Below, one piece after another: positions 12,274 through 31,553 of a stretch of 39,106 bases of DNA (position 1 is its first letter; each line of letters begins with the position of its first letter). Where the stretch lies: UHGV virus genome UHGV-1488538; one strand, written 5' to 3'. The position numbers were made by a program, and so were the translations under genes. A model generated the notes under the pieces. The model did not search any database, was not told the DNA's origin, and worked only from the letters and a program-made list of their open reading frames with translations. The stretch comes from a virus.

Positions 12274-12288
12274 TTACCACGGTGGTTA
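12274..12288. promoter_or_regulatory. Operator-like TTACC-ACGGT-GGTTA overlapping terminase RBS and start
   Basis: 1 mismatch. Confidence 0.45.
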
Positions 12289-12884
12289 TGATGCCTGCTG
12301 AACCTAAAACCTATAAACGCAAATCAACGCAATTTAAGCCACTAACAGCAATGCAGGAGGCTTATTGCCAGTCATACATCAAAACGCCTGAAAACCAGAC
12401 TCAGGCAGCGATTAACGCAGGATTCTCCCCAAATACAGCGGCAGTTAAAGCCAGTGTCATGATGCGCGATGAACGCATTCAAAAACGGATTGCCGAGTTG
12501 ATGGAGGAGCGCAACAAACGAATGCGTGTCAGTGCTGATTACGTTCTCATGCGCCTGGTGGAGATCGACCAGATGGACGTGATCGACATCCTCAACGACG
12601 ATGGGAGCCTTAAACCAATCCGTGAGTGGCCGAAAATCTGGCGCACTACGCTTAGTGGCTTTGATCTGTCATCGACCATCATGAACATGAACGAGGATTC
12701 AATAGAGACAATCCTCAAAAAAATTAAATGGCCTGACAAGGTGAAGAACCTTGAGCTGATTGGTAAGCATGTTGATGTCAACGCATTCAAAGAACGTCTG
12801 GATGTTAATGTGAATGTGACAATTGCTGATCGCATAGCAGCAGCCAGGAAGCGACTCAAAGAACGTCAGGATGGTAATCAGTGA
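12288..12884 (+). CDS. Terminase small subunit
   Basis: Position immediately upstream of large terminase with 4-nt overlap; start at ATG 12288 (track ORF from 12210). Confidence 0.7.
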   Translation: MMPAEPKTYKRKSTQFKPLTAMQEAYCQSYIKTPENQTQAAINAGFSPNTAAVKASVMMRDERIQKRIAELMEERNKRMRVSADYVLMRLVEIDQMDVIDILNDDGSLKPIREWPKIWRTTLSGFDLSSTIMNMNEDSIETILKKIKWPDKVKNLELIGKHVDVNAFKERLDVNVNVTIADRIAAARKRLKERQDGNQ

Positions 12885-14356
12885 CAGATACAGCGTTATC
12901 TCCTGAAGAGCAGTTAATCGAGGATATTGCAGGGTTCACTCACGATCCGCTTGGCTATGCCCTCTATGCGTTCCCGTGGGGGGAAGATGGGACTGAACTG
13001 GCACATGCCACCGGTCCACGTCAGTGGCAGGCTGATGCGTTCCGAGAGATACGTGATCACCTGCAGAATCCAGAGACGCGCTATCAGCCGCTTATGCTGG
13101 CACGCGCTTCGGGTCACGGTATTGGTAAATCCGCATTCATCTCAATGCTGATCAACTGGGGCATGTCCACTTGCGAGGATTGTAAGGTTGTGGTGACCGC
13201 CAACACCGACAACCAGCTACGAACGAAGACCTGGCCGGAAATTATCAAGTGGTCGAACCTTGCTATCACGAAAGACTGGTTTACCTGTACCGCTACCGCG
13301 ATGTACAGCAATGATCCTGGACACGACAAGCGGTGGCGAGCTGACGCAATACCCTGGTCTGAGCACAACACTGAGGCATTCGCCGGACTACACAACGAGC
13401 GCAAACGCATCATCGTGGTATTCGATGAAGCGTCGAACATTGCGGATCTGGTGTGGGAAGTTGCTGAGGGTGCGCTTACGGACGAAGACACTGAGATTAT
13501 CTGGGTGGCGTTCGGAAACCCTACACGTAACACCGGGCGTTTTCGCGAATGTTTCCGCAAATATAAACACCGCTGGAAAACTGCGCAGATTGACAGCCGG
13601 ACGGTGGAAGGCACTAACAAACAGCAGTTGCAGAAATGGGTTGATGACTACGGGGAAGACAGCGACTTCGTTAAAATCCGTGTGCGCGGCATATTCCCGG
13701 ATGCATCTGAATTGCAGTTTATCCCTACCGGCCTTACTGACGAGGCAATGAAACGGGTGGTAACCGCTGCGCAGGTTGCACATGCTCCGGTGATAATCGG
13801 CGTTGACCCGGCATACTCCGGCGTTGATGACGCTGTGATATACCTGCGGCAGGGGCTGCACAGTAAGGTGCTGTGGACTGGCAACAAGACCACTGACGAT
13901 CTGATTATGGCGAAGCGTATCGCTGACTTTGAAGACCAGTACCAGGCTGACGCAGTGTTCATCGACTTCGGTTACGGAACTGGTCTGAAGTCAATCGGTG
14001 ATGGCTGGGGTCGTACATGGCAACTTGTTCCGTTCGGTGGCGCGTCTACTGACCCGCAGATGCTCAACAAGCGTGGGGAGATGTTCAACTCATGCAAGAC
14101 ATGGCTGAGGCTGGGCGGCATGCTGGATGACCAGGAAACAGCGGACGACCTGTCTGCGGCAGAGTACAAAGTTCGAGTGGACGGTAAAATCGTTATCGAA
14201 CCGAAGGAAGATATCAAGGAGCGGCTTGGGCGTTCTCCTGGTAAAGGCGATGCGCTACTGCTGACGTTTGCGTTCCCTGTGTCGAAGCGTCTGCGAATTC
14301 CCGGGCAGCAGAACCAGCAAGGCAAGGCCATCACAGATTACGATCCATATGCTTAA
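12881..14356 (+). CDS. Terminase large subunit
   Basis: 491 aa; Walker A-like GHGIGKS; size and position. Confidence 0.9.
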   Translation: MTDTALSPEEQLIEDIAGFTHDPLGYALYAFPWGEDGTELAHATGPRQWQADAFREIRDHLQNPETRYQPLMLARASGHGIGKSAFISMLINWGMSTCEDCKVVVTANTDNQLRTKTWPEIIKWSNLAITKDWFTCTATAMYSNDPGHDKRWRADAIPWSEHNTEAFAGLHNERKRIIVVFDEASNIADLVWEVAEGALTDEDTEIIWVAFGNPTRNTGRFRECFRKYKHRWKTAQIDSRTVEGTNKQQLQKWVDDYGEDSDFVKIRVRGIFPDASELQFIPTGLTDEAMKRVVTAAQVAHAPVIIGVDPAYSGVDDAVIYLRQGLHSKVLWTGNKTTDDLIMAKRIADFEDQYQADAVFIDFGYGTGLKSIGDGWGRTWQLVPFGGASTDPQMLNKRGEMFNSCKTWLRLGGMLDDQETADDLSAAEYKVRVDGKIVIEPKEDIKERLGRSPGKGDALLLTFAFPVSKRLRIPGQQNQQGKAITDYDPYA

Positions 14357-14407
14357 TCCGCTGGTGGGGATAATGTCGTTGATATCCTCTGATGAGGATA
14401 AAACAAA

Positions 14408-14431
14408 GCCAGCTCATCGGCTGGCTGTTTG
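14408..14431 (+). terminator. Terminator-like hairpin after terminase (GCCAGC-tcatcg-GCTGGC)
   Basis: 6-bp stem, weak T tail. Confidence 0.45.
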
Positions 14432-14442
14432 TGACATGTCAC
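14431..14442. repeat. 12-bp palindrome GTGACATGTCAC (copy 2 of 3)
   Basis: Exact; abuts terminator hairpin and 3' end of minus-strand moron. Confidence 0.7.
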
Positions 14443-14446
14443 GGTG

Positions 14447-14866: not shown

Positions 14867-14875
14867 GATCTCACC

Positions 14876-14900
14876 TTAAAAAATGCCCGGCGAACCGGGC
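14876..14900 (-). terminator. Hairpin GCCCGG-ttcg-CCGGGC plus U-run (minus strand)
   Basis: Directly upstream of moron RBS. Confidence 0.5.
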
Positions 14901-14977
14901 GAACTGGAAGCAATGAGTTATGCCTTCCGTGGCTGTACGGGTTTACAGCATGAAGTCATCGCAATGGCGTCCTGCTG

Positions 14978-15020
14978 TAAAAAGGGCGGTGATAGTCCTT
15001 CAAGGGAAACTATCACCGCC
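14978..15020 (-). terminator. Strong rho-independent terminator 3' of tRNA (12-bp stem GGCGGTGATAGT, U-run)
   Basis: 12-bp perfect inverted repeat followed by T-tract on the minus strand. Confidence 0.75.
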
Positions 15021-15063
15021 AAGCACCTGGAACTTCTGGCATCACGGTCCTTAGGCGTGATTC

Positions 15064-15140
15064 TGGCGTGGCATGCAGGATTCGAACCTGCGACCAACCG
15101 CTTAGAAGGCGGTTGCTCTGTCCAACTGAGCTAATGCCAC
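15064..15140 (-). tRNA. tRNA-Arg (anticodon UCU)
   Basis: 77-nt cloverleaf folded by hand on the minus strand: 7-bp acceptor stem GTGGCAT/ATGCCAC, D-arm GCTC/GAGC, anticodon stem ACCGC/GCGGT with loop CTTCTAA, T-arm GCAGG-TTCGAAT-CCTGC, encoded CCA. Confidence 0.9.
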
Positions 15141-15462
15141 AACGCTGAGAGCACTTAGCCTGTTAAGGCGCCACACTTTGTCGCGGCTCCATAAATGCTC
15201 TCATCGTTGTACCCTCGTCTCTTCCGAGGCGTCACACCGAATCGCCGGGATGGTGAATCCCCGTGCGCGGAATAAAACCGCTCGACTTGCACATTCCGGC
15301 TACCTGGTTCGTTTGCCACAGCCAGGGAGGGTGCCCCTTAAACGTATCCAGACCGCTATCGGCGCATGTGCCATACGCCGTACTGCTCAAAATAAAAGCT
15401 CACCCCACCTGTTCAATTTAACGACAAGCCAGTCAGGTTAATAACCGGAATGAACTCTTTGC

Positions 15463-15774: not shown

Positions 15775-15788
15775 CCGGAGTCATTGAA

Positions 15789-17468
15789 ATGGCGGAAACA
15801 ACTAAAGAGCGATTGAACAAACAGTTCGCACAACTTGAAAGCGAGCGTCAGTCGTTCGAGCCGCACTGGCGCGAGTTGAGTGATTACATCAACCCGCGTG
15901 GTTCCCGCTTTCTGACTTCTGAGGTCAACCGTAACGATCGACGCAATACACGCATTATTGATTCGACCGGGACTATGGCGGCGCGCACTCTCGCCAGCGG
16001 CATGATGTCAGGCATCACAAGCCCCGCGCGTCCGTGGTTTCGCCTGGCTACGCCAGATCCTGAAATGATGGATTATGGCCCTGTTAAGTTGTGGCTTGAG
16101 GCGGTGCAGAACCGCATGAACGATATGTTCAATAAGTCGAATCTCTACCAGTCTCTTCCGCAGTTATACGGAAGCCTCGGCACATACAGCACTGGTGCAA
16201 TGGCGGTGCTGGAGGATGACGAGGACATCATTCGCACAATGCCATTCCCGATAGGCAGTTACTACCTGGCTAACTCACCTCGTGGCAGTGTGGACACCTG
16301 TTTTCGCAAGTTCTCTATGACTGTTCGTCAGCTTGTTCAGGAGTTCGGGCTAAATAACGTCAGCGAATCTGTAAAAAGCATGTGGGAAAGCGGCACCTAC
16401 GAGAAGTGGATTGAAGTGATGCATTCGGTTTACCCGAACATTGACCGCGATACATCGAAGCTGGATAGCAAGAACAAGCCATTCAAATCGGTTTATTACG
16501 AGGTTGGTGGCGATAACGACAAGTTGTTGCGTGAGTCCGGATTCGATGAGTTTCCAATTATGGCTCCGCGCTGGGAAGTTAATGGCGAAGATGTTTATGG
16601 ATCATCATGCCCGGGTATGCTGGCGCTTGGACCTGTTAAGGCATTGCAGCTTCTCCAGAAGCGCAAGTCGCAGTTGATTGATAAAGCCACCAATCCGCCG
16701 ATGGTTGCTCCGACTTCCCTCAAGAATCAGCGTGCCTCCCTTCTTCCTGGCGACATCACGTATATCGATCAGATTACTGGTCAGGATGGCTTCAGGCCTG
16801 CTTATCTGGTTAACCCCAGTACAGCAGATTTGGTGGCAGACATTCAGGACACTCGTCAAATCATTAACAGCGCCTACTTCGTCGATCTGTTCATGATGTT
16901 GCAGAACATCAATACCCGCTCAATGCCTGTTGAAGCGGTGATCGAAATGAAAGAAGAAAAGCTTCTGATGTTGGGGCCGGTTCTGGAGCGTCTGAACGAC
17001 GAATGTCTTAATCCTCTCATTGACCGCGCTTTCTCGATGATGGTGCGTAAAAACATGCTGCCGCCACCGCCTGACGCGATGGAAGGCATTCCCCTGAAGG
17101 TCGAATACATTTCCGTCATGGCTCAGGCGCAGAAGTCTATCGGCCTGTCCAGTCTGGCGTCCACGGTTAACTTCATTGGTCAACTTGCGCAAGCGAAACC
17201 AGAAGCTCTCGACAAACTCAACGTTGATCAGGCGATCGATGCATTCGCTGATATGTCCGGAGTGTCTCCAACCGTCATTGTTCCGCAGGAACAGGTTGAG
17301 CAGGCTCGCCAGCAACGGGCACAGCAGCAACAGCAACAACAAATGATGGCGGTGGGGATGGCGGCGGCACAGGGTGCCAAGACGCTAAGCGAAGCTAAAA
17401 CTTCGGATCCGAGTGTTTTGACAGCTATGGCGAATGCAGTTAGTGGTCAGGGTGGGCAATCACAATGA
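15789..17468 (+). CDS. Portal (head-to-tail connector) protein, T7 gp8-like
   Basis: 559 aa; Gln-rich C-terminus QQRAQQQQQQQMMAVGMAAAQGA resembles the T7 connector C-terminus as recalled; gene order. Confidence 0.8.
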   Translation: MAETTKERLNKQFAQLESERQSFEPHWRELSDYINPRGSRFLTSEVNRNDRRNTRIIDSTGTMAARTLASGMMSGITSPARPWFRLATPDPEMMDYGPVKLWLEAVQNRMNDMFNKSNLYQSLPQLYGSLGTYSTGAMAVLEDDEDIIRTMPFPIGSYYLANSPRGSVDTCFRKFSMTVRQLVQEFGLNNVSESVKSMWESGTYEKWIEVMHSVYPNIDRDTSKLDSKNKPFKSVYYEVGGDNDKLLRESGFDEFPIMAPRWEVNGEDVYGSSCPGMLALGPVKALQLLQKRKSQLIDKATNPPMVAPTSLKNQRASLLPGDITYIDQITGQDGFRPAYLVNPSTADLVADIQDTRQIINSAYFVDLFMMLQNINTRSMPVEAVIEMKEEKLLMLGPVLERLNDECLNPLIDRAFSMMVRKNMLPPPPDAMEGIPLKVEYISVMAQAQKSIGLSSLASTVNFIGQLAQAKPEALDKLNVDQAIDAFADMSGVSPTVIVPQEQVEQARQQRAQQQQQQQMMAVGMAAAQGAKTLSEAKTSDPSVLTAMANAVSGQGGQSQ

Positions 17469-17761
17469 CAGATTACGAAGACGATCAACTGAAAGAAGAA
17501 AACGCCCGTAAGCAACGTGACATGGCGCAGCGTGAAATTGATGACATTCGCTTTGTCATGAGCAGTGAACAAGGGCGTCGCGTTGTCTGGTCGGTGCTGG
17601 AGAAAGGCCGTGTGTTTTCCGCTATCTCACCGATGGACGCTATGGCAATGGCATTTAATGAGGGGCAACGCAATCTGGCGCTGGAACTGTTTCAGCGCGT
17701 TATGGCGCATTGCCCTGAACAGTATTTGAAGATGGCCAAAGAGGCCAGTGAACAGGAGTGA
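17465..17761 (+). CDS. Hypothetical protein (98 aa)
   Basis: ORF track; ATGA overlap with portal stop. Confidence 0.55.
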   Translation: MTDYEDDQLKEENARKQRDMAQREIDDIRFVMSSEQGRRVVWSVLEKGRVFSAISPMDAMAMAFNEGQRNLALELFQRVMAHCPEQYLKMAKEASEQE

Positions 17762-17763
17762 TC

Positions 17764-18459
17764 ATGAATTTATTTGAGCGTTTGCTGTATCGCCGTCTTT
17801 GCAATGAGCAACCAGTCGATGGTGGAGCAGCTCCGGCTGCGTCAGAACCGTCAGCGCCTGCAGGTGATAACCCTGCTCCAGTTGGTGATCCATCACAACA
17901 GGAAGGTGATAAGCCACAACCTGTTGCTGATGGCGATAAACCTGCTGATGACAAAAAGCCTGAAAACGATAAGCAGGATGAAAAAAAGGACGGCGATAAA
18001 CCAGAGGGTGCGCCTGAAAAGTACGAGTTTCAGGCTGCCGAAGGCGTAGAGCTGGATACAGAAGCGTTGAAGGAATTCGAGCCGGTGGCGCGAGAACTAA
18101 ACCTGACCAACGAGCAAGCGCAAAAGCTGGTTGATGCTTATCCGAAGATTCTGGCAGGTGTTCAGCAGCGCCAGGCAGAAGCCTGGCAGAAAACAACCGA
18201 GCAGTGGGCTGCGGATGTAAAAGCTGACAAAGAAATCGGTGGCGACAAGTTGATTTCTAACCTTAGCGCCGCACAGCGTGCGCTTGACCAGTTCGGGACA
18301 CCTGAACTCAAAGAATATCTGAACACCACCGGGCTGGGTAATCACCCTGATCTGGTCAAAACGTTCGTGAAAATCGGAAAGGCGATGTCTGAAGATGGCA
18401 TGGTCACCGGTGGTAATGAAGGCCAGCGTAGTGCGGCCGAAGTGCTCTATGGCAAATAA
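17764..18459 (+). CDS. Scaffolding protein
   Basis: Acidic, Pro/Ala/Asp/Lys-rich low-complexity N-terminal half, helical C-terminus; between portal and capsid; AGGAG RBS before ATG 17764 (track start 17758 GTG). Confidence 0.7.
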   Translation: MNLFERLLYRRLCNEQPVDGGAAPAASEPSAPAGDNPAPVGDPSQQEGDKPQPVADGDKPADDKKPENDKQDEKKDGDKPEGAPEKYEFQAAEGVELDTEALKEFEPVARELNLTNEQAQKLVDAYPKILAGVQQRQAEAWQKTTEQWAADVKADKEIGGDKLISNLSAAQRALDQFGTPELKEYLNTTGLGNHPDLVKTFVKIGKAMSEDGMVTGGNEGQRSAAEVLYGK

Positions 18460-18467: not shown

Positions 18468-19460
18468 ATGACAATGGCTGTTAAAGGCTTAACTGCGCTA
18501 ACGCTGGCTGACTGGGGTAAGCGCGTCGATCCAAACGGGAAAGTCGATAAGATTATCGAGCTTCTCAGTCAAACCAACCCAATCCTTCAGGATATGCCTT
18601 TTGTTGAAGGAAACCTTCCTACCGGACACCGAACCACCATTCGTTCTGGTTTGCCTTCCGCTACTTGGCGTTTGCTGAACTATGGCGTACAACCGAGCAA
18701 ATCAACAACGGTGCAGGTCACTGATTCCATTGGCATGCTGGAAACCTATGCTGAAGTCGATAAGTCTCTGGCTGATCTGAACGGTAATACTGCCGAATTC
18801 CGCCTGTCTGAAGACCGAGCATTTATTGAAGCGATGAATCAGGCGATGGCGCAGACGCTGTTTTACGGTGATTCCAGCGTTAACCCTCAGCAGTTTATGG
18901 GACTGTCCTCCCGCTATTCCAGCCTGTCTGCGGGTAATGCTCAGAACATCATTGATGCTGGTGGCACGGGTACAGATAACACTTCAATCTGGTTAGTGGT
19001 GTGGGGCGAAAACACCGTGCATGGCATCTTCCCGAAAGGGCAGAAGGCTGGCATCCAGATGGAAGATAAAGGCCAGGTGACACTGGAAGATGCTAATGGC
19101 GGCAAGTACGAAGGTTATCGTACCCATTATAAGTGGGACAACGGGCTGACATTGCGTGACTGGCGCTATGTTGTTCGCATTGCAAACATCGATGTCAGCA
19201 ATCTTGACGCTCCTTCTACTGCTGCGAATATCGCAAAACTGATGATTCGTGCCCTTCATCGAATCCCAAATCGTGGGATGGGACGTCCTATTTTCTACAT
19301 GAACAGAACCATTAACGAAGTGCTTGACCTGCAATCTCTGGAGAAGAGTTCTCTGGCGATCAGCGTGAAAGAGACAGAAGGCGAATGGTGGACAGAACTT
19401 CGTGGTGTGCCGATTCGCGAAACTGACGCACTTCTGGAAACAGAAGCCCGCGTGGTGTAA
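18468..19460 (+). CDS. Major capsid protein
   Basis: 330 aa; position after scaffold; followed by stabilising hairpin 19477-19496. Confidence 0.8.
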   Translation: MTMAVKGLTALTLADWGKRVDPNGKVDKIIELLSQTNPILQDMPFVEGNLPTGHRTTIRSGLPSATWRLLNYGVQPSKSTTVQVTDSIGMLETYAEVDKSLADLNGNTAEFRLSEDRAFIEAMNQAMAQTLFYGDSSVNPQQFMGLSSRYSSLSAGNAQNIIDAGGTGTDNTSIWLVVWGENTVHGIFPKGQKAGIQMEDKGQVTLEDANGGKYEGYRTHYKWDNGLTLRDWRYVVRIANIDVSNLDAPSTAANIAKLMIRALHRIPNRGMGRPIFYMNRTINEVLDLQSLEKSSLAISVKETEGEWWTELRGVPIRETDALLETEARVV

Positions 19461-19511
19461 CGCCTGTTATTAACCTGTGGGTCGTAACAGACCCACTAAT
19501 GGAGAAAGAAG

Positions 19512-19949
19512 ATGATCACCGACAAACTGTTGATGTTCTCCGAAGCTCAGGCGGTTACGAATACCGCGGCTTCTACTGACGTAATCGATCTCGGTCCAAT
19601 TGACGGAAACCGTCGCGATATCGGTGTGGGTTACCCGCTTGAGTTTTGGGCGCTGGTTAACGAAGCCGCCACGGCAAGTGGTGAGGCAACTGTAAACATC
19701 CAGTTGCAGACGAGTGAGAATAACAGCTCATGGTCCACTATTTATGATAGTGGCGCACTGGCAAAGGCCACCCTGACAGCAGGTAAGCGAGTTGTTTCTG
19801 CAAAGGTGCCAGCCGGTGTTCAGCGATATCTGCGTGTTAACTACTCCGTCGCAACTGGCCCACTAACGGCTGGCAAATTCACTGCGGGTATCAATCTTGA
19901 TGTTGATGCCAATACGCCGTATCCGATCCGCTCAAAAGTAACTGGTTAA
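19512..19949 (+). CDS. Hypothetical virion protein (145 aa)
   Basis: ORF track; late operon. Confidence 0.55.
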   Translation: MITDKLLMFSEAQAVTNTAASTDVIDLGPIDGNRRDIGVGYPLEFWALVNEAATASGEATVNIQLQTSENNSSWSTIYDSGALAKATLTAGKRVVSAKVPAGVQRYLRVNYSVATGPLTAGKFTAGINLDVDANTPYPIRSKVTG

Positions 19950-19950
19950 G

Positions 19951-20295
19951 GTGATATTGATGTCAGGTGAGAAACCAAGATACCGCGTTCTGCGCCTCTC
20001 TCATATCCATAACACTCTGTGGCCGGAGGGGGCAGAAATCGAATACGAAGGTGAGCCTGGTAGCGCACTGGAACCTGTTAACGATGCAGCCAGACAGGCA
20101 AAAGCAAAGGTAGCGGGAAAGGTGTCAATGGCAGCAACCAGCACCAAAATCATCAACGATGTGTCAGATGATGGTGAACTGGATAAGCTCCGTGAAGAGT
20201 ACGAATTGCTCTTTAACGAGAAGCCACACCATAACGCCAAAGCAGAAACGCTTCGCGAGAAGATCGCAGATAAGCGTAAAGAACTGGGCGTGTAA
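19951..20295 (+). CDS. Hypothetical virion protein (114 aa)
   Basis: ORF track. Confidence 0.55.
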   Translation: MILMSGEKPRYRVLRLSHIHNTLWPEGAEIEYEGEPGSALEPVNDAARQAKAKVAGKVSMAATSTKIINDVSDDGELDKLREEYELLFNEKPHHNAKAETLREKIADKRKELGV

Positions 20296-20339
20296 GCCTC
20301 GCGAATCAGACAAGGGGCTTCGGCCCCTTTATTGCAGGA

Positions 20340-20669
20340 GTGTATATGGAACTCGTAAACCTCAAAACAGGCACTGACAGCTACCAGGATGAGAGCGGAG
20401 AAACCAGAACTCGCGATGAATACCCGTGGGGGCTGTGCATCACGCTGAATAACGACACATTGAATAAGCTGAAGGCGCAACCTAAGGGCGTCGGAACGGA
20501 AGTGATGATAACTGCAAAGGCTGTTATTCGAGGCCTGTCTGCCAGAGAAACTGACGATGGCGTTAATCGCAGCGCCGATCTGCAGATCACTGATATGGCG
20601 ATCGCTCCTGTTTCCGGGGATGTAGAAAAATCAGCGGCTGAAACTCTGTACGGTAACGGAGGTGAGTGA
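20340..20669 (+). CDS. Hypothetical virion protein (109 aa)
   Basis: ORF track. Confidence 0.55.
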   Translation: MYMELVNLKTGTDSYQDESGETRTRDEYPWGLCITLNNDTLNKLKAQPKGVGTEVMITAKAVIRGLSARETDDGVNRSADLQITDMAIAPVSGDVEKSAAETLYGNGGE

Positions 20670-21274
20670 TGGCCTCTGTAGTAGAGATCTGTAATCGTGC
20701 GCTGTCCAATATTGGCAACAGCCGCAGCATTAACAGCCTGACGGAAGCCAGCAAGGAAGCGGGGGAATGTTCGCTGCACTTTGAGGCCTGCCGTGATACT
20801 GTGCTTTCTGATTTTGACTGGAACTTTGCTACCAAACGCGTGGCGCTTGCAGATACGAGCAATCCACCGCCTGACTGGGAATATGCGTACCAGTACCCGT
20901 CAGATTGTCTGCGCATTACTGAAATTATGCTTCCTGGTGTACGCAATCCAACAGCAGCAATGCGCGTTCAGTACGAAGTTGGTGCAGACACCAACGGAAC
21001 AGGAAAGTTGATCTACACAGACCAGCCTCAGGCATGGCTCAAGTATGTCTCTCGCGTTACAGATGTGAACATGTTTGATGCCATTTTTATGGAGGCGTTG
21101 GCCTGGCGTCTTGCGGCAGCTATTAACATGGCGCTGACTGGGAATGCAGACCTCGGTACGTTTGCCCTCAATATGTACAATCGCGTGATTCTTAGTGCTG
21201 GCTCGCATAGCCAGAATGAATCACAGGAACCACAGCCACCGGTTGACGAGTTTACCATTGCGAGGTTGTCCTGA
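20666..21274 (+). CDS. Tail tubular protein A-like (T7 gp11-like)
   Basis: 202 aa; N-terminus ...ICNRALSNIGNSRSINSLTEA resembles T7 gp11 N-terminus as recalled; position. Confidence 0.6.
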   Translation: MMASVVEICNRALSNIGNSRSINSLTEASKEAGECSLHFEACRDTVLSDFDWNFATKRVALADTSNPPPDWEYAYQYPSDCLRITEIMLPGVRNPTAAMRVQYEVGADTNGTGKLIYTDQPQAWLKYVSRVTDVNMFDAIFMEALAWRLAAAINMALTGNADLGTFALNMYNRVILSAGSHSQNESQEPQPPVDEFTIARLS

Positions 21275-23745: not shown

Positions 23746-24209
23746 TGATCGATGTTCGAATTATTCCCGCTACCGAAGAGCATCTTCAGATGATTTTGCC
23801 GGATGTTCGTCAGGCTGATATTGACGAACTGTATGCGGTATCGCTGATGACTACCGAAGATGCGCTGCGTGTTGGTCTGCGCACTGCGACTATGGCCTGG
23901 TCAGGGTTCGCGAACGGAGAGCTGGTAACCATGTTTGGTGTATCTCCGGCGTCAATGATCGGTGGCAATGGTACGCCATGGCTGGTCGGGACCAGCCGTA
24001 TTGAAAAATATCAGAAGACATTTCTGCGCCACTGCCGCCCTGTATTGCAGCAGATGCTGGCAGTTTATCCGCGCTTGGAAAACTACGTCGACGAGCGAAA
24101 CCATGTTGCCAAAGCATGGCTGCACTGGCTTGGATTCAGGCTTGAAGAAGCCGCGCCTTATGGTGCTCTTGGTCTTAATTTCCACAGATTTCACATGGAG
24201 AGAAAATAA
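23745..24209 (+). CDS. Hypothetical protein (154 aa), internal virion protein A position
   Basis: Gene order only. Confidence 0.5.
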   Translation: MIDVRIIPATEEHLQMILPDVRQADIDELYAVSLMTTEDALRVGLRTATMAWSGFANGELVTMFGVSPASMIGGNGTPWLVGTSRIEKYQKTFLRHCRPVLQQMLAVYPRLENYVDERNHVAKAWLHWLGFRLEEAAPYGALGLNFHRFHMERK

Positions 24210-24748
24210 TGTGTAACCCAGCCATCGCTTTGGTTGCCGTCACAGTGGCATCCACAGCCGCGTCAATGTACAGCCAGAGCAAGCAGGCAAAATACCAGTC
24301 AGCCATAGCTGATCGGAATGCTGAAATTGCTGAAGCTCAGGCACAGGATTCAATCAATCGTGGGAATATTGAAGCGGATCAGCGTCGTCGTGAAATGCGT
24401 CAACGCTCAGGCACTGCGGCGGCCACTATGGGGGCTACCGGTGCGGAATTAAGTAGCGGAACAGCTCTTGACGTTTTTGCGGATAATGCTCAGTTCGGCA
24501 CTCTTGATGCGTTAACGACAGTGAATAATGCTCAGCGTGAGGCATATGGGTATCAGGTTCAGGGAATGAATGCTCAGGCACAGGGGGCTGCTGCTCAGTC
24601 GGCTGCTAAATCATCGATGACCAGCACTTTGTTAACGGCACCACTAAAAGCATACGGTGCATACCAGATGGGCGGCGGAACGTGGAGCCCGTTCTCTCAG
24701 AAGGCTGCGCCGATTTCTGCTGCTGTTGGCACTCCAACCGGTCGATAA
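24209..24748 (+). CDS. Internal virion protein B (T7 gp14-like)
   Basis: 179 aa; starts MC..., Ala/Gln-rich, C-terminus KAAPISAAVGTPTGR closely resembles T7 gp14 C-terminus as recalled. Confidence 0.7.
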   Translation: MCNPAIALVAVTVASTAASMYSQSKQAKYQSAIADRNAEIAEAQAQDSINRGNIEADQRRREMRQRSGTAAATMGATGAELSSGTALDVFADNAQFGTLDALTTVNNAQREAYGYQVQGMNAQAQGAAAQSAAKSSMTSTLLTAPLKAYGAYQMGGGTWSPFSQKAAPISAAVGTPTGR

Positions 24749-24760
24749 GGGGATAATAAG

Positions 24761-27274
24761 ATGCCAGTTGTACCAACAACATCGGGCCGTCAGGTTCAGA
24801 GCAGAGGGATTTCGACGCAGGGATTCTCATCGTTTCAGACACCAAATGTCGGTGATGTACTTGGCGATGTTGCAGAGCAATATGCAGGTATTATTGCGCA
24901 GGCAAAACAGCGTGCGAATGTTGCTATGGCTCAGGATGCTTCTCTTAGCTTAAGCCAGATAAGCAGCGATCTGCTGAATAACCCTGAAACAGGTTTGCTT
25001 AACCTGCAAGGGAAAAATGCTATTGGAAAAGGTCAGGAGTATACGCAGCAGTTTGATGCTCAGGTCGAACAACTGGCTATGTCGCTGCCGGATGAACAGG
25101 CTCGTAATGCTTTCATGCAGCAGGCGCAGCAGCAGCGCATTCAGTTCACTACGCAGGCCGGGCGGCACGAGATAGGGCAAATAAATGCCTACGAAGAAGG
25201 CCAGTTTCAGGCTACGCTGCTGAACAATGGTAAAAATGCCGCAGCATTGTATGGCGACAACGCCGCATACGTATTGGCTAATAAGCAAACTTTCCAGCAA
25301 ATTGAGGATTACGGCATTGCACATGGCTGGAGTGACGAGCAAATCCAGGCCAAGAAAATCGAGTTTAAAGAAGCAACAGCAAAAGCAACTGCTCAAAATG
25401 CTATTGGAGCAAACTATCTTCAGGTAAGACAGCAAAACGGCGAGTTAAGCGATACTGCTGCTGGTTCTCGCCGTGCTGTAGCAGATAGTGGCTCTTCCGA
25501 TCGTACCCGCGGTATACGCAACAATAACCCCGGCAATCTTGAATACAGCAAAACTAATCCGTGGGTTGGGCAGACTGGTGATGATGGTCGCTTTGCCAAA
25601 TTCGAAACCCCTGAACACGGTATTCGTGCATTAGGGCGGAACCTGATGTCGTATCAGCGGCAGGGTATTGATACCGTCAGCGAGATAATTAATCGCTGGG
25701 CACCGCCTACTGATAAAAATGACACTATGTCGTATATCAAAGCAGTGTGCGAACAACTTGGCGTTTCTGCTGATGAGCCTCTCGATGCATCAAATCCTGA
25801 TACCCTGAAGGCGCTTTGTGCAGCCATTATCCATCATGAAAACGGTAGCCAGCCATACAGTGATCAGCAGTTAACTGCAGGTGTTAGTGCTGCGCTGGGG
25901 CTTTCTCAGCTACCGACAAAAAATAAACGTTATACCGGTGTAGCCTGGTTCGATGCTTTAAGTGAATCAGATCAGGCCAGCGTGTTGCGACAGACTGATG
26001 CACTAGCCAGACAACAGCAGGCTGAATATAAAACGATGCTCGACAGCCGGGTTCGCGATGCGACGGCTGCGTATATGCGTGGCATTGAATTTCCTAACCC
26101 ACCTGGTGAGGATGATTTTATTGCAGCTTATGGAGTCAGAGAAGGAAACCTGCGATATACCGAGTTTAAGAATACGCAGATCGCCGGACAGTATATAGGC
26201 TCTTTCCGCAACATGCCGACAAGCAGCATTACAGCATATGTTGAGCAATTACGCCCGGATACTGGTGATACAGGGGAGGGGTATGCGGCACGCGCAACTC
26301 TTTATGACAACGTTGTTTCGGCTGCAAATCAGGTGATAAAGCAGCGGCAGTCGGATCCTGTGCAGTTCTCTCTTGCCTCCGGACAGGCAAAGCCTATCGA
26401 CATGAGCAATAAGGATAACTTTGGACAGAGCGTTGCCTTGCGTGCCGCTCAGGTCAGTGACCTTGCTAAGTCATATGGCACTCCACTGACGTTCTTTTCC
26501 AAAGACGAGGCCAATCAGATCGGTGTTTTCTTTCGTGATGCTCCAGTTTCCCAACAGGCAGCATATCTCGATACCATCAGGCAGAGCACTGGTGGTGGGC
26601 AGGTGTATATGTCAGCACTACAGCAGATCAGTGCCAACGCTCCATCTGCTGCCGTTGCCGGGATACTGATGGATAAGCCTGGTGGTATTTTGGCAGAAAA
26701 AAACTGGTTTAATCCGGATGTTTCCGTGTCTCCTGAAACCGCTGCGCAGACAATTCTTGCTGGCGCGGCGGCTCGTAAAGGTACTGATGATGCGAAAGGT
26801 ATTCCGATGCCTAAAGATGCTGATCTTCGCCTTGAGTTTTCTGACATGGTGAAGGATGCATTTGCTGGTGACGCTCAGGGCGCATCAATGGCATACGAGA
26901 TCGCAAAGGATTATTACGCTGGTGTGATGGCGAAAAAAGGCGTGGTATCAGGCGAAATTGACAATGATGTCTGGAAACAGGCTGTTAACGTAGCTACAGG
27001 TGGCGTGCATGACTATAACGGAATGGGGAATGTCCTTTTGCCGTGGGGAATGTCTGCAGAGCAATTCGATAAGCAGGTTAATCAGGCTTGGAATGAACAA
27101 GTTGTCGGCTCCGGGATAAAAACACCGCCTGGTCAGTATGGTTTGCAAAGTTACGGCGATAGTCAGTACCTGGTGAAACTTGGTACTGGTTATCTGCTGA
27201 AAGATGATGGTTCTCCCGTTGTTCTTAATCTGACACAGAAGCGTCAGAGATTCTCCGGAGATATTCCGCAATGA
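24761..27274 (+). CDS. Internal virion/ejection protein (gp15-like), possible peptidoglycan-hydrolase domain
   Basis: 837 aa; segment RGIRNNNPGNLEYSKTNPWVGQTGDDGRFAKFETPEHGIRALGRNL reminiscent of phage structural lysozyme domains (tentative). Confidence 0.6.
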   Translation: MPVVPTTSGRQVQSRGISTQGFSSFQTPNVGDVLGDVAEQYAGIIAQAKQRANVAMAQDASLSLSQISSDLLNNPETGLLNLQGKNAIGKGQEYTQQFDAQVEQLAMSLPDEQARNAFMQQAQQQRIQFTTQAGRHEIGQINAYEEGQFQATLLNNGKNAAALYGDNAAYVLANKQTFQQIEDYGIAHGWSDEQIQAKKIEFKEATAKATAQNAIGANYLQVRQQNGELSDTAAGSRRAVADSGSSDRTRGIRNNNPGNLEYSKTNPWVGQTGDDGRFAKFETPEHGIRALGRNLMSYQRQGIDTVSEIINRWAPPTDKNDTMSYIKAVCEQLGVSADEPLDASNPDTLKALCAAIIHHENGSQPYSDQQLTAGVSAALGLSQLPTKNKRYTGVAWFDALSESDQASVLRQTDALARQQQAEYKTMLDSRVRDATAAYMRGIEFPNPPGEDDFIAAYGVREGNLRYTEFKNTQIAGQYIGSFRNMPTSSITAYVEQLRPDTGDTGEGYAARATLYDNVVSAANQVIKQRQSDPVQFSLASGQAKPIDMSNKDNFGQSVALRAAQVSDLAKSYGTPLTFFSKDEANQIGVFFRDAPVSQQAAYLDTIRQSTGGGQVYMSALQQISANAPSAAVAGILMDKPGGILAEKNWFNPDVSVSPETAAQTILAGAAARKGTDDAKGIPMPKDADLRLEFSDMVKDAFAGDAQGASMAYEIAKDYYAGVMAKKGVVSGEIDNDVWKQAVNVATGGVHDYNGMGNVLLPWGMSAEQFDKQVNQAWNEQVVGSGIKTPPGQYGLQSYGDSQYLVKLGTGYLLKDDGSPVVLNLTQKRQRFSGDIPQ

Positions 27275-29073
27275 GTTACTTTGGCCTTAATCCAGTAAAC
27301 CAGAATCAGCAGCTTGACGAAGCAGCATCAAATCCAGCTGGCTTTAACAGCGATGTTGGTTTTTTCGACAATGCTGTAGGAGCGGCATTGTCTGGTTTGT
27401 ACTCCGGGCTGGTGGCAAAGCCAGATCAGTTGCTATGGGCAGGGATGGATAAAATCGTATCCCCGATTGCTCAGTTTGTTAACGAAAACACCTCGATCAA
27501 TGACACTTCAGTTTCATACATTGCTGAGCAGAGAAAACTAGCAGAGCAGCAGGTTAAGCGGCTGACGCCTGATGCCGCGACAACCGGAACCGCCGGGCAG
27601 GTCCTTTATGGGTTGTTCGATATGGGCGGGCAGGCTGTTGTCGGTACAACGCTCGGTGGTCCGGTCGGAGGTGCTGCGGCGGTAACTTCTCTACAGGGTT
27701 TTTCTGAGTTTGAACGGCTTACAGCACAGGGTGTTGATTTCAGGACGGCGCAGGAAGCGGGATTAGTGCAGGGTATTACTGCTGGTGCCGGAACACTGAT
27801 CCCTATGAGCCTCGGGTTACGTGCTGGTGGTGCGCTGGCGGAAGGTGTGGCGGCTCAGCTTGCGCGGACGGGTGAAAGTTCAGTGCGACGCGCCGCAGCA
27901 ACAGCAGTACGTGCAACGCCAGATATTGCCTATGCCGCAGGTACAAATATTGCGTTCGGTATGGCACAGCGTGGGCTTACTGCAAAAACGCTTCGTGATG
28001 GTGGCTATAGCGAAATGGCTAACCAGTATGATGTGTTGGATCGACAGGCAATTGCTATTGATGCTGTTCTTGGGGTGGCGTTTGGTGGTGTCGGCAGATT
28101 TATTAACTCTCGCGGCGAGTCTACAAGCGCACCAAATTTTTCACCAGTTGATATCGATGCTGCACTGGCGGCGAATGCCGCTCATCATGCTGAAATTGAT
28201 ATTGCTCCCGGCGTGCCGATCAACGTGCTTTCGCGTAATTCGCACATTCAGGCTCTGCGAAAAGCCATGTCTGATGTTAGCCAGGGGAGACCTGTAGACG
28301 TTGCCAGCATTGTTGAGTCTGCATCTTTCAGTGAAATTCCTGGACGCAAGAGTCTGCTGTCTCAGGCAGTTAATGAGGCTCTGTCATCTGTAGATGATGG
28401 AGTAACGGCGCGCGCTATAGAAAATCGGTTGCTTGAAGAACAGGCCGCGCAGCTTTTGCCGCGTGGCGATAGACAGGTTTACCAGTCTGAAATCGCTAAT
28501 AGCCAACGAATTATTGAAAATCTCACTGAACAGCGCGCACAAATTCTTGCAGAAGATCCAGCCGGTAGCGGTAAGGCTTTATCTCGTGCTCGATCAGATA
28601 AACAGGCCAGACTTCGCGATATTGACCAACGAATCCGGCAGGCACAAGAACGCCTGGAATTTTCTCGTAACGCGTTGGCACCGCATGAGCCTGGCGGTCA
28701 GTTTTTTGAAGCTCGAGCAGAACTGGCTCGGAGACAGCAGGCAGAAAGTGAACTTAATGCTCAGGCTGTTTCATTCTATAAAACAGCAGAGGTCAGGACG
28801 CCAGACGAAGTAGCTCCTTTTGAGCCTGATAAAATATTGCAACAGGCAGAACAAAAAATGATGTCAGATCAGGCAGGAGATATTGATTTGCGCATAGCTG
28901 AAGACTCGCTGCTTGAATCACCTGACATGATAATCACCGTGCTGGATGATGATGGTAATCCACAATCGCGCAGTGCGCGTGAAGCACTGGATGAAGCGAA
29001 CAGGGAAAGTGAGCAGGCAATACAGGATTCCAGCCTGTTTGATGTCGCTGTGGCGTGTTTCTTGAGAGGTTAA
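27271..29073 (+). CDS. Internal virion/ejection protein
   Basis: 600 aa; gene order. Confidence 0.55.
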   Translation: MSYFGLNPVNQNQQLDEAASNPAGFNSDVGFFDNAVGAALSGLYSGLVAKPDQLLWAGMDKIVSPIAQFVNENTSINDTSVSYIAEQRKLAEQQVKRLTPDAATTGTAGQVLYGLFDMGGQAVVGTTLGGPVGGAAAVTSLQGFSEFERLTAQGVDFRTAQEAGLVQGITAGAGTLIPMSLGLRAGGALAEGVAAQLARTGESSVRRAAATAVRATPDIAYAAGTNIAFGMAQRGLTAKTLRDGGYSEMANQYDVLDRQAIAIDAVLGVAFGGVGRFINSRGESTSAPNFSPVDIDAALAANAAHHAEIDIAPGVPINVLSRNSHIQALRKAMSDVSQGRPVDVASIVESASFSEIPGRKSLLSQAVNEALSSVDDGVTARAIENRLLEEQAAQLLPRGDRQVYQSEIANSQRIIENLTEQRAQILAEDPAGSGKALSRARSDKQARLRDIDQRIRQAQERLEFSRNALAPHEPGGQFFEARAELARRQQAESELNAQAVSFYKTAEVRTPDEVAPFEPDKILQQAEQKMMSDQAGDIDLRIAEDSLLESPDMIITVLDDDGNPQSRSAREALDEANRESEQAIQDSSLFDVAVACFLRG

Positions 29074-29078
29074 ATTAA

Positions 29079-31553
29079 ATGAGACAGGAATGTATACAAG
29101 CGGTTCAGCAGGCGGCGCAGCGCATGTTAACGGCGCGAGAAATACAGAACATTGAAGACCGCATTTATCGAAATATGCGCTCCATTGCTCGTGATGACCC
29201 TATGTCGTGGCGACAACTTTCCGAATCAGAGCGGCTATATCGAGCAGCACAATTGGCATCTGAAGAATTACAGCGAGAAGCGGCATTAAAGAAACGTCGT
29301 GTGGCTCTCACTATAGCCGCGCGTCAGAGATTGGATAAATTTATCAATAGCTATCAAGGGGCTGATGGGAAACTTGGCGCTCTTAACCGTACTATAGCTT
29401 TTAATGCAGACGGTAAATCTAATTTCCTCTCTGTTGAATCCAGAACAAAAGCCACCCGTGATTATGCATTGAGTCAATTGCAGGAGGCATTCGAAGCAGT
29501 TGATCCTCGCTTTTTTGGTCTGTTTGAAGATGAAGCGGGCGTACGTGACCTGGTATATGAAATGCGGGGGCAAAATACTGGCAATGCTAAAGCAAGAAAC
29601 GGTGCTAAGGCGTGGAGAGAAGTTACAGAGCTGCTGCGCCGCCGGTTTAATGATGCTGGTGGGGACATTGGCTATCTCGAAAACTGGGGGATCCCTCAAC
29701 ATCATTCTATGGAAAAGGTTGGGGCAGTATCAAAGGATAAGTGGGTTAGCGATGTTATAGGTAAGCTGGATCGCAAATATTATATCCGAGCCGATGGACA
29801 ACTGATGAACGATGCAGAGTTGTCTTCATTTCTTGGAGAGGCTTATAACACGATCGCTACTGGTGGGCTGAATAAGCTTACTGATACCGGAATGCGAATT
29901 TCCGGCGCACGTGCTAACCGTGGTAATGCATCACGACAGATACATTTCAAAGATGCAGATTCCTATCTGCAATATCAGCAACTTTATGGCGATCGCTCTC
30001 TATGGGAAATCATGGTCTGTCACCTGGAAGGTATCAGTAAAGATATTGCACTGGTGGAAACATATGGCCCAAACCCCGATCATGTTTTCCGCTCTCTTCT
30101 TGATCAGGTGAAGGCAGAAACGGCAACAGTTAACCCGAGTAAAACCGGTAAAGTCGAGCGGCTGGCGAACAACACAGAGAATCTGTACAACTTTATTTCC
30201 GGAAAGACACAGCCTGTAGCGAATCCGCACATCGCGCGATGGTCTGACAATATCCGCAACTGGCTGGTTGCCAGCAGACTCGGATCCGCGTTGCTGTCAT
30301 CGTTCTCTGATCTTGGAACCATGTATCTGTCTGCGAAGGTTACCAACCTTCCAATGAACCAGTTATTCCGCAACCAGCTTGAAGCTATGGACCCAACGAA
30401 CCGTACAGAACTTGCGCGGGCGCGCCGCGCTGGTCTGGCGATGGAATCTCTACTTGGCAGCGTTAACCGCTGGGCGATGGATAATATGGGGCCGTCAGTG
30501 TCTCGTTGGGCGGCAACGGCGGTAATGCGTGCCAGTGGGCTTACAGCATGGTCAGATGCGCACAAGCGCGCCTATGGCGTAACCATGATGGGAAGCCTGG
30601 GAGAAGTAGTGTCACGGACACCAGACCTTCGTAGCCTCGATGACTCTGATTTTCGTATCCTGAAAAGCAAAGGGATTACTGACACAGACTGGAGCGTATG
30701 GAAGCTGGCGAAACAGGAGGACTGGGGGAACGGTAATAATACGATGCTGACACCGGAAAGCATTATGCGTATCCCTGATTCAGCAGTTAAACATCTTGGT
30801 GAGCCTGAACGCGTGAAATTTGAGGCAATGCGTAAACTGCTCGGTGCCGTAACTGAAGAAGTTGATATGGCTGTTATTACACCGGGAGCACGTGAGCAAC
30901 TGATAACCGGTTCTGGTATTCAGCGTGGAACATGGAAAGGTGAATTAACGAGAAGTGTTTTCCTGTTTAAATCGTTCCCTATCTCGGTTGTTATGCGTCA
31001 CTGGTCACGCGCTATGGGTATGCCGTCTGCTGGTGGGCGTGCGGCATATATTGCGACGTTTATTGCCAGTACGACCATTCTTGGCGCTTTGTCGCAGCAA
31101 CTTAACGACCTTGCGTCTGGTCGTAATCCTCGAGAGATGACAGGAGAAGATGCCGCAAAATTCTGGCTTGGTGCTCTACTGAAAGGTGGTGGTCTTGGCC
31201 TTTACGGTGACTTTTTATTGTCAGATCACACTAGGTACGGAAGCGGCGCGCTGGCGTCGATGCTTGGCCCGGTAGCTGGTCTGGTTGATGACGTAGTGAA
31301 GATTGCTCAGGGCATACCGTTAAATGCTGTGGAAGGGAAGAGTGAGCAGACTGGTGGTGATCTGGTGAAGCTGGGGAAAGGTTTGATGCCTGGTGCGAAT
31401 CTCTGGTACTTGAAGGCGGCTCTCGATCACATGATCTTTAACCAGATGCAGGAGTATTTTTCACCAGGCTATTTGCGTAAAATGGAGCAACGTTCGAAGA
31501 AAGAGTTTAACCAGACATACTGGTGGCGACCACAGGATGTCACTCCGCAATAA
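29079..31553 (+). CDS. Internal virion/ejection protein (gp16-like)
   Basis: 824 aa; gene order. Confidence 0.55.
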   Translation: MRQECIQAVQQAAQRMLTAREIQNIEDRIYRNMRSIARDDPMSWRQLSESERLYRAAQLASEELQREAALKKRRVALTIAARQRLDKFINSYQGADGKLGALNRTIAFNADGKSNFLSVESRTKATRDYALSQLQEAFEAVDPRFFGLFEDEAGVRDLVYEMRGQNTGNAKARNGAKAWREVTELLRRRFNDAGGDIGYLENWGIPQHHSMEKVGAVSKDKWVSDVIGKLDRKYYIRADGQLMNDAELSSFLGEAYNTIATGGLNKLTDTGMRISGARANRGNASRQIHFKDADSYLQYQQLYGDRSLWEIMVCHLEGISKDIALVETYGPNPDHVFRSLLDQVKAETATVNPSKTGKVERLANNTENLYNFISGKTQPVANPHIARWSDNIRNWLVASRLGSALLSSFSDLGTMYLSAKVTNLPMNQLFRNQLEAMDPTNRTELARARRAGLAMESLLGSVNRWAMDNMGPSVSRWAATAVMRASGLTAWSDAHKRAYGVTMMGSLGEVVSRTPDLRSLDDSDFRILKSKGITDTDWSVWKLAKQEDWGNGNNTMLTPESIMRIPDSAVKHLGEPERVKFEAMRKLLGAVTEEVDMAVITPGAREQLITGSGIQRGTWKGELTRSVFLFKSFPISVVMRHWSRAMGMPSAGGRAAYIATFIASTTILGALSQQLNDLASGRNPREMTGEDAAKFWLGALLKGGGLGLYGDFLLSDHTRYGSGALASMLGPVAGLVDDVVKIAQGIPLNAVEGKSEQTGGDLVKLGKGLMPGANLWYLKAALDHMIFNQMQEYFSPGYLRKMEQRSKKEFNQTYWWRPQDVTPQ

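Follow-up and report, generated by a model that had tools for sequence, protein, structure and literature searches.

The 39,106-nucleotide viral genome UHGV-1488538 (the window, which here means this whole stretch of DNA) raises the question of what kind of phage it encodes and how its virion genes are related to those of T7. The original prediction, made from the letters alone, described a mosaic in which lambdoid early genes are joined to a T7-like virion module (12288-31553) that lacks a phage RNA polymerase. The analysis described here identifies the window, with a probability of roughly 95%, as a single temperate podophage, to all appearance complete, that belongs to the epsilon15/phiV10 group (genus Uetakevirus) and is inserted in the last codons of Escherichia coli guaA. 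This kind of phage is already known and well characterised, and the relationship of its tail and ejection genes to those of T7 was published in 2016. Coordinates below are those of the window, with + and − denoting the strand.

Integration Site and Whole-Genome Comparison

The 39,106 bases comprise a single prophage and a few dozen host bases at either end. The host guaA 3′-end (1..80, +) was recognised from the translation of bases 3-80, which is the C-terminus of GMP synthase. A 17-bp direct repeat, ATTGAGTGGGAATGATT, is present in two exact copies (0.01 matches expected by chance), namely the core of the left attachment site (attL; 66..82, +), which overlaps the last guaA codons and the stop, and the attR core (39044..39060, +). 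Because the att core contains the guaA stop codon, guaA stays intact. Phage vB_EcoP_ZX5 also integrates at the 3′-end of guaA, and its att core is identical to that of the window (PMC9782041). For a prophage of E. coli ECSC054 that carries the same tailspike, RefSeq places guaB, guaA and the integrase gene on one side and an Rz-like gene and yfgI on the other. Tandem prophages were considered and rejected, since there is only a single att pair.

A megablast search with the virion block (12288-31553) identified HEMP4, vB_EcoP_PAS61, vB_EcoP_ZX5, phiv142-3, phiV10 (DQ126339 / NC_007804) and two O157 typing phages at a coverage of 94–96% and an identity of ~97%, followed by Enterobacter phage Tyrion at 81% and Salmonella phage epsilon15 at ~76% identity over 49% of the block. 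In the early region (1-12287), phiV10 and PAS61 cover 77–80% at 97.6–97.8% identity. As to the limits first proposed for the virion block, position 12288 is an in-frame ATG within the small terminase (TerS) open reading frame (ORF) at 12210-12884, and the gene for the last internal protein (824 aa) has its stop at 31553. Across the block the offset is constant (window coordinate = phiV10 coordinate + 12169), and in BLASTP searches the virion proteins are 94–100% identical to those of phiV10, except for the gp14-like and gp15-like proteins (gp14L and gp15L) and the tailspike; gp15L is 89% identical, the N-terminal half being the divergent part. The genes correspond one to one with those of the phiV10 and epsilon15 records, from TerS, the large terminase (TerL) and the portal through to gp17, and then tailspike, lysis genes, att/int and early genes. 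The assignment to an epsilon15/phiV10-type podophage of similar size in guaA, which formed part of the original prediction, is borne out by the whole-genome comparison, the att core and the collinearity over 39.1 kb, and no evidence that contradicts it was met.

Departures from phiV10 were located by a 500-nt sliding comparison. They lie at 1501-2000 (the phosphatase insert described below), at about 3800-4500, where the RecT/exonuclease junction has almost no phiV10 match, at 19001-19500 (86%), at 24001-26000 (68–92%), at 31550-33000, at 35000-37000 (no match) and in the lysis genes (83–93%). The differences at the RecT/RecE junction, the gp14-gp15 patch and the tailspike, and the fact that particle formation by this copy is a prediction from sequence, could be taken to indicate a defective or cryptic phiV10-like remnant that no longer forms particles. 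Such a remnant is unlikely: each virion, lysis, replication and integration gene of phiV10 has a full-length, intact counterpart in the window, both att cores are intact, and the divergent patches are allelic replacements, met with again in other loci and in relatives that have been cultured, HEMP4 and PAS61 among them.

Remote Homology of the Portal, Tail and Ejection Genes to T7

When all 27 late-region proteins were compared with the T7 and P22 proteomes by BLASTP, nothing significant was found save a 13-residue tail of gp14L, and on this basis neither phage was accepted as a close relative. At the level of Pfam, 7 of 9 T7 structural families are unmatched by the window. A control scan of the T7 proteins assigned gp8 to PF12236 and gp14 to PF24072, the same families as the window's portal and gp14L; the T7 scaffold, capsid, gp11, gp12, gp13, SLT domain of gp16 and terminase hit families that are unreached by the window proteins. 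The lack of an RNA polymerase gene was confirmed, with no Pfam match in any large ORF and a best tblastn hit of T7 RNA polymerase at E = 0.8; no T7 promoter is present in the window at up to 3 mismatches.

Remote similarity was assessed with a 13 × 11 matrix in which all pairs of window-side and T7-side profiles were aligned by hhalign. The window-side profiles were drawn from the window and the annotated records of epsilon15, Carin-1, BPP-1, HTVC024P, Ab31, Bolivar, KL4, SC2 and Piluca, and the T7-side profiles from T7 and 17 T7-group contigs. Strong scores fell on syntenic pairs only, namely portal–gp8 (98.9%), nozzle–gp12 (86.8%) and the gp13-like protein (gp13L)–gp13 (92.2%). Weak best-in-row matches were obtained for adaptor–gp11 (P = 0.003), for the Walker region of TerL–gp19 and for the gp17-like protein (gp17L) against the C-terminal region of T7 gp16 (P = 0.002), and gp15L weakly matched the N-terminal SLT/transglycosylase region of T7 gp16 (P = 0.004). 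The other cells reached at most 2.3%. The homologue lists of the nozzle and of the 233-aa protein in the scaffold position held only relatives at least 80% identical, which is too shallow for remote profiles; that of the adaptor reached ~50% identity and supplied an alignment.

The portal (15789..17468, +) belongs to the T7 gp8 family (Pfam PF12236, E = 5e-187) and also matches the Carin-1 portal 8ck0. The tail adaptor (20666..21274, +), a homologue of tubular protein A or gatekeeper, was identified from its predicted fold and by hhalign. Its AlphaFold2 (AF2) model, with a predicted local distance difference test score (pLDDT) of 80, was compared with known structures by Foldseek and matched the Carin-1 connector 8ck1_E at E = 1.6e-14 with a template modelling (TM) score of 0.83 and T7 gp11 (7box_M) at E = 5e-6 with a TM score of about 0.6; the Legionella phage LME-1 adaptor and KP32 tail tubular protein A were also matched, and P22 gp4 only at E = 0.5. 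The tail nozzle (21274..23745, +), a tubular protein B homologue, matches the Carin-1 “Tail Nozzle” 8ck1_A at E = 2e-217, and its homologues carry the annotation tail tubular B or nozzle. In the hhalign alignment with T7 gp12, positions 331-442 are set against 427-536, and the same central domain was reported for this match by Hardies et al. (PMC4819975). In Pfam, the curated T7 gp11 and gp12 families (PF17212, PF25675) are unmatched by adaptor and nozzle. The two proteins are homologous to T7 gp11 and gp12, yet stand outside the curated T7 families. A literature search on the PDB entries 8CK0, 8CK1 and 8CJZ retrieved no paper, and the name phage Carin-1 is taken from the Foldseek description.

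The nozzle is followed by five internal-protein genes, as against four in T7. The first encodes gp13L (23745..24209, +; phrog_308), a homologue of internal virion protein (IVP) A, and the second gp14L, which is discussed below. The third encodes gp15L (24761..27274, +), recognised by PHROGs and PDB matches, whose lytic transglycosylase domain (about residues 249-403) matches the N-terminus of phage E1004 Gp29 (9vvp_L, E = 9e-39) and the endolysin 7q47. The fourth, gp16L (27271..29073, +; phrog_1145), is 32% identical to epsilon15 gp16, and a T7 counterpart was undetected by hhalign. The fifth is the 824-aa gp17L (29079..31553, +; phrog_684), which resembles epsilon15 gp17 and is a proposed homologue of T7 gp16/IVP-D, mainly on the authority of PMC4819975; a PDB sequence search with it found nothing. 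No counterpart of T7 gp15 was detected among the window proteins by hhalign. The proposed series of internal proteins 13 to 16 holds for its gp13- and gp14-like members; the number of genes differs, the gp15 counterpart is undetected and the gp16 match is weak.

These results reproduce the assignments published for epsilon15, in which gp11 is tubular A, gp12 is tubular B, gp13 and gp14 are IVP-A and IVP-B, and gp17 is IVP-D (Hardies et al., 2016, PMC4819975). In that study IVP-C was undetected in epsilon15, terminase and capsid were placed with those of siphoviruses, and epsilon15 gp12 and gp17 were counted as members of a podovirus “transient tail” structural homology group. The gene order of this group is present in the window: adaptor, nozzle, gp13-like, gp14-like, transglycosylase-bearing protein and large helical proteins. 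Table 1 of PMC8954989 gives epsilon15 gp11 (229 aa), gp12 (499 aa) and gp13 (708 aa) as gp14-, gp15- and gp16-like; in the epsilon15 record these proteins have 201, 825 and 154 aa, and the sizes in the table look like those of another phage's proteins.

Several points weigh against the reading of the window as a functional epsilon15/phiV10-type phage whose tail and ejection genes are homologous to those of T7. The copy is read from its sequence alone and its function as a live phage is predicted; on the comparisons made, the scaffold-position protein, the capsid, and gp15L and gp16L when set against T7 gp15, show homology to T7 that is weak or undetected; and it is we who infer that the 233-aa protein acts as a scaffold, the databases speaking of a peptidase. 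Small-profile hhalign also missed gp14 (0.8%), a family that Pfam detects, and a negative cell in the matrix is for this reason weak evidence of absence.

The parallel with T7 from portal to internal proteins, and the near identity of the gp14 C-terminal peptides, would also suit a recent chimera, in which a lytic T7-like (Autographiviridae) phage had newly supplied a lambdoid prophage with its structural module, the RNA polymerase being lost. This is highly improbable, given the BLASTP result, which extends no further than the 13-residue tail, and the T7 structural families left unmatched. The same architecture is moreover found in phiV10 at 97% identity and, at lower identity, in epsilon15, BPP-1, Carin-1 and Pelagibacter phages, and because it is common to all of these the arrangement is old. 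On the sequence comparisons, the resemblance of the epsilon15/phiV10-type window to T7 is one of ancient shared ancestry of portal, tail and ejectosome genes, not of recent fusion. The proposed T7-like virion order is a fair description of the portal, tail and ejection genes; capsid, decoration proteins, scaffold-position gene and terminase carry no T7-family signal, and there is no recent junction with the lambdoid early genes.

The gp14-Like Protein

gp14L (179 aa; 24209..24748, +), a homologue of the outer-membrane pore ejection protein T7 gp14, matches Pfam PF24072 at 32.8 bits (cutoff 27). The C-terminal peptide from which a gp14-like protein had been predicted, KAAPISAAVGTPTGR, is its exact C-terminus (aa 165-179, nt 24701-24745); of its last 13 residues, 10 agree with the C-terminus of T7 gp14, TKAPIVAAKGTKTGR, and each of the two proteins begins with MC. 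The protein is only 64% identical to phiV10 p17. gp14 alleles were counted in 80 viral contigs, all with a nozzle 99–100% identical to that of the window; identity of gp14 to the window's copy ranges from 61% to 100%, and at least three C-terminal types occur, ending in KAAPISAAVGTPTGR, APIGAAAGTRLPGGL and SDSRFKIGGY. As judged from these alleles, gp14 is a mosaic hotspot. That it is a modular, rapidly exchanged determinant of host adaptation is a tentative idea, more doubtful than not.

The tail KAPIxAAxGTxTGR shared by the window and epsilon15 is nearly the same in T7 and its close relatives, and is missing in the more distant members of either group, namely Carin-1, BPP-1, HTVC024P and Ab31 on the epsilon15 side and loci L101 and L102 on the T7 side. 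A short interaction peptide specific to enterobacteria, passed on by lateral transfer or retained convergently, would account for this pattern better than simple vertical descent.

Terminase and Head Genes

As predicted, the terminase genes (12210-14356) precede the portal. TerS (12210 or 12288 to 12884, +; Pfam PF03592) and TerL (12881..14356, +; phrog_2) have 99–100% amino-acid identity to the phiV10 terminases, and TerL matches no T7 terminase family (Terminase-T7 RNaseH-like, T7 gp19) in Pfam (hhalign 18%). A reverse ORF and a tRNA-Arg (TCT) gene (15064..15140, −; ARAGORN) lie between TerL and the portal. The tRNA gene overlaps an 83-aa plus-strand ORF (14883-15134) that is annotated as hypothetical protein p04 in the phiV10 RefSeq record; other relatives annotate the tRNA.

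The major capsid protein (18468..19460, +; Pfam PF20911) belongs to the epsilon15 gp7/BPP-1 family with the HK97 fold. It matches the PDB entries of BPP-1 (3j4u) at 430 bits and epsilon15 (3j40) at 285 bits, is 43% identical to epsilon15 gp7, and has no match to the T7 Gp10A family (Pfam; hhalign 2.3%). Because the capsid is closer to that of BPP-1 while portal and tail proteins are 80–88% identical to those of epsilon15, the comparison points to an old head-shell replacement within the genus. A Bbp19-like small protein (17465..17761, +; Pfam PF25181) is encoded next to the portal, upstream of the capsid gene. Downstream of the latter, the capsid accessory genes at 19512..20669 (phrog_590 for the group) encode a Bbp16-like cement protein (19512..19949, +; Pfam PF21190), a gp9-like protein (19951..20295, +) and a gp10-like capsid-stapling protein (20340..20669, +; Pfam PF21628). 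None of these four has a T7 counterpart.

Between portal and capsid lies the gene for the acidic 233-aa scaffold-position protein (17758..18459, +; isoelectric point 4.6), whose N-terminal third is rich in Pro, Ala, Glu, Asp and Lys. In its AF2 model, residues 16-85 are disordered and residues 86-215 are all-alpha with a pLDDT above 90. Most database records label the protein a protease or peptidase, and some a “capsid assembly protein”. It has no match in Pfam, NCBIfam or the PDB, either as a single sequence or as a 54-member profile; Foldseek with the model found no PDB match, and in BFVD only proteins of the same family, which are unnamed or called “putative protease”. The label “protease” was dropped as unsupported, there being no protease family, motif or fold. 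Its position, composition and predicted all-alpha fold suggest that “scaffold” would be the better functional guess, and the term originally chosen may stand in that sense, with no similarity to T7 gp9 (hhalign 0.2%). The family with the “peptidase/endoprotease” label (13,766 cluster representatives at E ≤ 0.001) may as a whole be a scaffolding protein, in which case a label that is probably wrong has spread through thousands of database entries.

Early Region and Links to Lambdoid Phages

The early region opens with a tyrosine integrase gene (273..1529, +) that encodes P4-type arm-binding and catalytic domains (Pfam PF13356, PF22022, PF00589) and is 98% identical to phiV10 at the nucleotide level. 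It is followed by a NinI-like Ser/Thr phosphatase gene of the calcineurin-like phosphoesterase type (1532..2311, −; Metallophos, Pfam PF00149, E = 2e-15), an insert that is absent from phiV10 and stands in place of phiV10 p32; its DNA is 79% identical to ninI of HK225 and phi80 and 99% identical to PAS61. Next come an MT-A70 adenine methyltransferase, a PerC-like activator and an AlpA/Xis-like regulator (2188..3488, −; Pfam PF05063, PF06069, PF05930). The methyltransferase, classified as MTase_II, is the only PADLOC match.

The recombination genes encode a RecT annealing protein (3538..4482, −; Pfam PF03837) and a PDDEXK RecE-type exonuclease (DUF3799; 4452..5273, −; Pfam PF12684), a pair of the RecET type and not of the Red (Exo/Bet) type. 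The two are separate, overlapping ORFs in the window and in epsilon15; the phiV10 record gives one 1761-nt RecE-RecT fusion. A divergent repressor (5878-6462, −) and Cro-like gene (6617-6847, +), detected by Pfam HTH_3 and phrog_35 (transcriptional repressor), match phiV10 p40 and p41. The replication module contains a lambda P homologue, a helicase loader (8011..8811, +; Pfam PF06992, E = 1e-56), and an initiator that is other than lambda O, namely an HTH_36/DnaT-domain protein (7214..8029, +; Pfam PF13730, PF17948). Accessory early genes found by Pfam scan (8929..12169, +) encode DUF1064, DUF7739, Ead/Ea22, DUF551 and ASCH proteins and a regulator, and segments of the Ea22/DUF551 stretch are 92–96% identical to hundreds of Shiga toxin (Stx)-converting and other lambdoid phages, including lambda. 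The Pfam scans of the early region identified no homologue of the N or Q antiterminator.

Because the ninI-like DNA and the Ea22/DUF551 segments match lambdoid phages, “lambdoid early genes” is a fair description, recombination excepted: of the features cited for it, the phosphatase, P and RecT are present, and Bet is replaced in this account by RecT with the RecE-type exonuclease. The lambdoid character of the region is kept up by ongoing exchange with lambdoid prophages, and its make-up has already been published for epsilon15-like phages.

Variable Region, Tailspike and Lysis Genes

The interval between the last internal-protein gene and the tailspike (31537..34419, both strands) is variable and mostly unlike phiV10. 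Family scans in 31500-34650 took only the five ORFs at 31537-31725, 31737-32153, 32256-32891, 33121-33846 and 34147-34419. The first, from the ORF list, is a small membrane ORF. The second (+; phrog_3716) is lipoprotein-like, with an internal Met followed by RKVFLIFGFMLLVGC; it adjoins the last internal-protein gene, roughly in the position of P22 sieA, and is absent from phiV10. The third (−) is known from the ORF list. The fourth (−) encodes a 241-aa Bro-N/Ant antirepressor (Pfam PF02498; PHROG anti-repressor families), and the fifth (−) a 90-aa paralogue of its C-terminal domain, that is, a stand-alone copy of that domain (phrog_450, phrog_15539). PADLOC found no defence genes among the ORFs of this region. 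Of the ORFs in 31500-34650 that have 35 aa or more, none was recognised as resembling Arc or Mnt, and sar was not searched for; the P22 immI cassette (mnt-arc-ant) is represented by genes of the Bro-N/Ant type only.

The suggestion that tailspike and lysis genes are displaced behind an immI-like region as in P22 is sound as regards the order antirepressor, tailspike and att, and fails for the lysis genes, which are not parallel, and for arc and mnt, which were not found. A Bro-N/Ant gene does separate the internal-protein genes from the tailspike, and in phiV10 the tailspike precedes an O-antigen conversion gene and att/int, a series that parallels P22 gene 16, immI, gene 9, gtr and att. The idea that the window is a P22-like (Lederbergvirus) prophage can nevertheless be dismissed, since BLASTP gave nothing significant for P22 portal, coat, scaffold, gp4, gp10, gp26, gp7, gp20, gp16 or tailspike, the adaptor model matches T7 gp11 (5e-6) far better than P22 gp4 (0.5), neither arc nor mnt was found, and the lysis genes are placed otherwise.

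The tailspike gene (34601..37063, +) of the phiV10-type window encodes a conserved N-terminal adaptor domain, a beta-helix and a Peptidase_S74 chaperone (Pfam PF13229, PF13884). Its N-terminal 165 aa are 68–70% identical to the phiV10 and epsilon15 tailspikes, and only that part is common to them. The beta-helix/receptor-binding part matches none of 50,697 phage records; among 5426 complete E. coli genomes, 68 carry it at an identity of 99% or more. The O-acetyltransferase gene (oac) of phiV10 is absent from the window, with none after the tailspike. Since the tailspike differs and oac is lacking, the phage probably has an O-antigen specificity different from that of phiV10 and no immunity based on O-acetylation. 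phiV10 has been engineered as a reporter, and the difference in tailspike and oac bears on any use of such prophages for typing or for engineering of this kind. The lysis cassette (37136..38933, +) consists of two holin-family genes, a GH19 endolysin and an Rz-type spanin (Pfam PF16931, PF05449, PF00182, PF10721; RefSeq annotation of ECSC054).

Proposed Life Cycle

The following life cycle is suggested by homology and by what has been published on epsilon15, T7 and BPP-1. Lysogeny would be controlled by a CI/Cro-type switch with input from the Bro-N antirepressor, all transcription would be carried out by the host RNA polymerase, and replication would rely on the DnaT-domain initiator and the lambda-P-type helicase loader. 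The non-T7 terminase would package the DNA into a BPP-1/epsilon15-type capsid of the HK97 fold, built on a T7-type portal with the acidic helical scaffold-like protein and reinforced by the cement and stapling proteins. The tail would consist of an adaptor ring and nozzle of T7 architecture that bear beta-helix tailspikes with a putative specificity for O-antigen. When a cell is infected, the internal proteins, which would include the gp14-like pore former, the protein with the lytic transglycosylase domain and two large helical proteins, may be ejected and form a channel across the envelope in the manner of T7, and the cell would finally be lysed by holins, GH19 endolysin and spanin.

Comparison with Known Systems

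The reading of the raw sequence was able to recognise this architecture; its value for discovery is small, the window being an ordinary member of a well-characterised phage type. Among the systems compared, P22 is like the window in the antirepressor-tailspike-att layout only, and its lysis genes do not lie behind immI. Lambda, HK225, phi80 and the Stx phages share with the window the P-family helicase loader, the NinI phosphatase, Ea22/Ead/DUF551 and the divergent repressor/cro pair; the window differs from lambdoid phages in having no lambda O-type initiator and in its recombination genes, which are of the RecET type and not Exo/Bet or Erf. Neither BLASTP nor Pfam found lambdoid or P22 virion genes in the window.

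T7 has the same order of portal, scaffold (as a position), capsid, adaptor, nozzle, gp13, gp14, large internal proteins, fibre and holin, and a lytic transglycosylase domain among its internal proteins. Unlike T7, the window is that of a temperate phage, which has an integrase and a complete set of lysogeny genes, and is without RNA polymerase or T7 promoters; its terminase genes are placed upstream and belong to a different family, its capsid falls in a Pfam family other than that of T7 and is supplemented by cement and staple proteins, its transglycosylase domain is on gp15L and not on the gp16 homologue, and its receptor-binding protein is a tailspike and not a fibre.

BPP-1, Cobetia phage Carin-1, Pelagibacter HTVC010P-type phages and Pseudomonas Ab31/AF form the wider epsilon15 structural homology group. 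Their modules have the window's order of portal, small protein, gp6-like protein, major capsid protein, cement, adaptor and nozzle, and then acetyltransferase-like, gp14-like, lysozyme-bearing and large internal proteins, and the solved BPP-1 capsid and Carin-1 tail structures match the window by sequence. The differences lie in an identity of 30–45%, in other hosts, early regions and tail fibres, and in the gp14 C-terminal peptide, which is not conserved.

epsilon15 (NC_004775) shares the whole gene order, the integration target and the gp14 C-terminal peptide. Portal, adaptor, nozzle and terminase are 80–95% identical at the protein level, whereas major capsid protein, cement, gp9 and gp10 are only 37–43% and gp16 and gp17 28–32% identical, and epsilon15 has other serotype-conversion genes.

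The window differs from phiV10 in its NinI-like phosphatase, its split RecT and exonuclease genes, its divergent gp14 and N-terminal half of gp15, the interval between gp17 and tailspike, the receptor-binding part of the tailspike and the lack of oac. Its nearest relatives are nevertheless phiV10, HEMP4, PAS61, ZX5 and phiv142-3, which are collinear with it at the same size of 39.1 kb, are 97–99% identical across the virion block and most early genes, and have the same tRNA-Arg and lysis cassette, the guaA att core being common to the window and ZX5.

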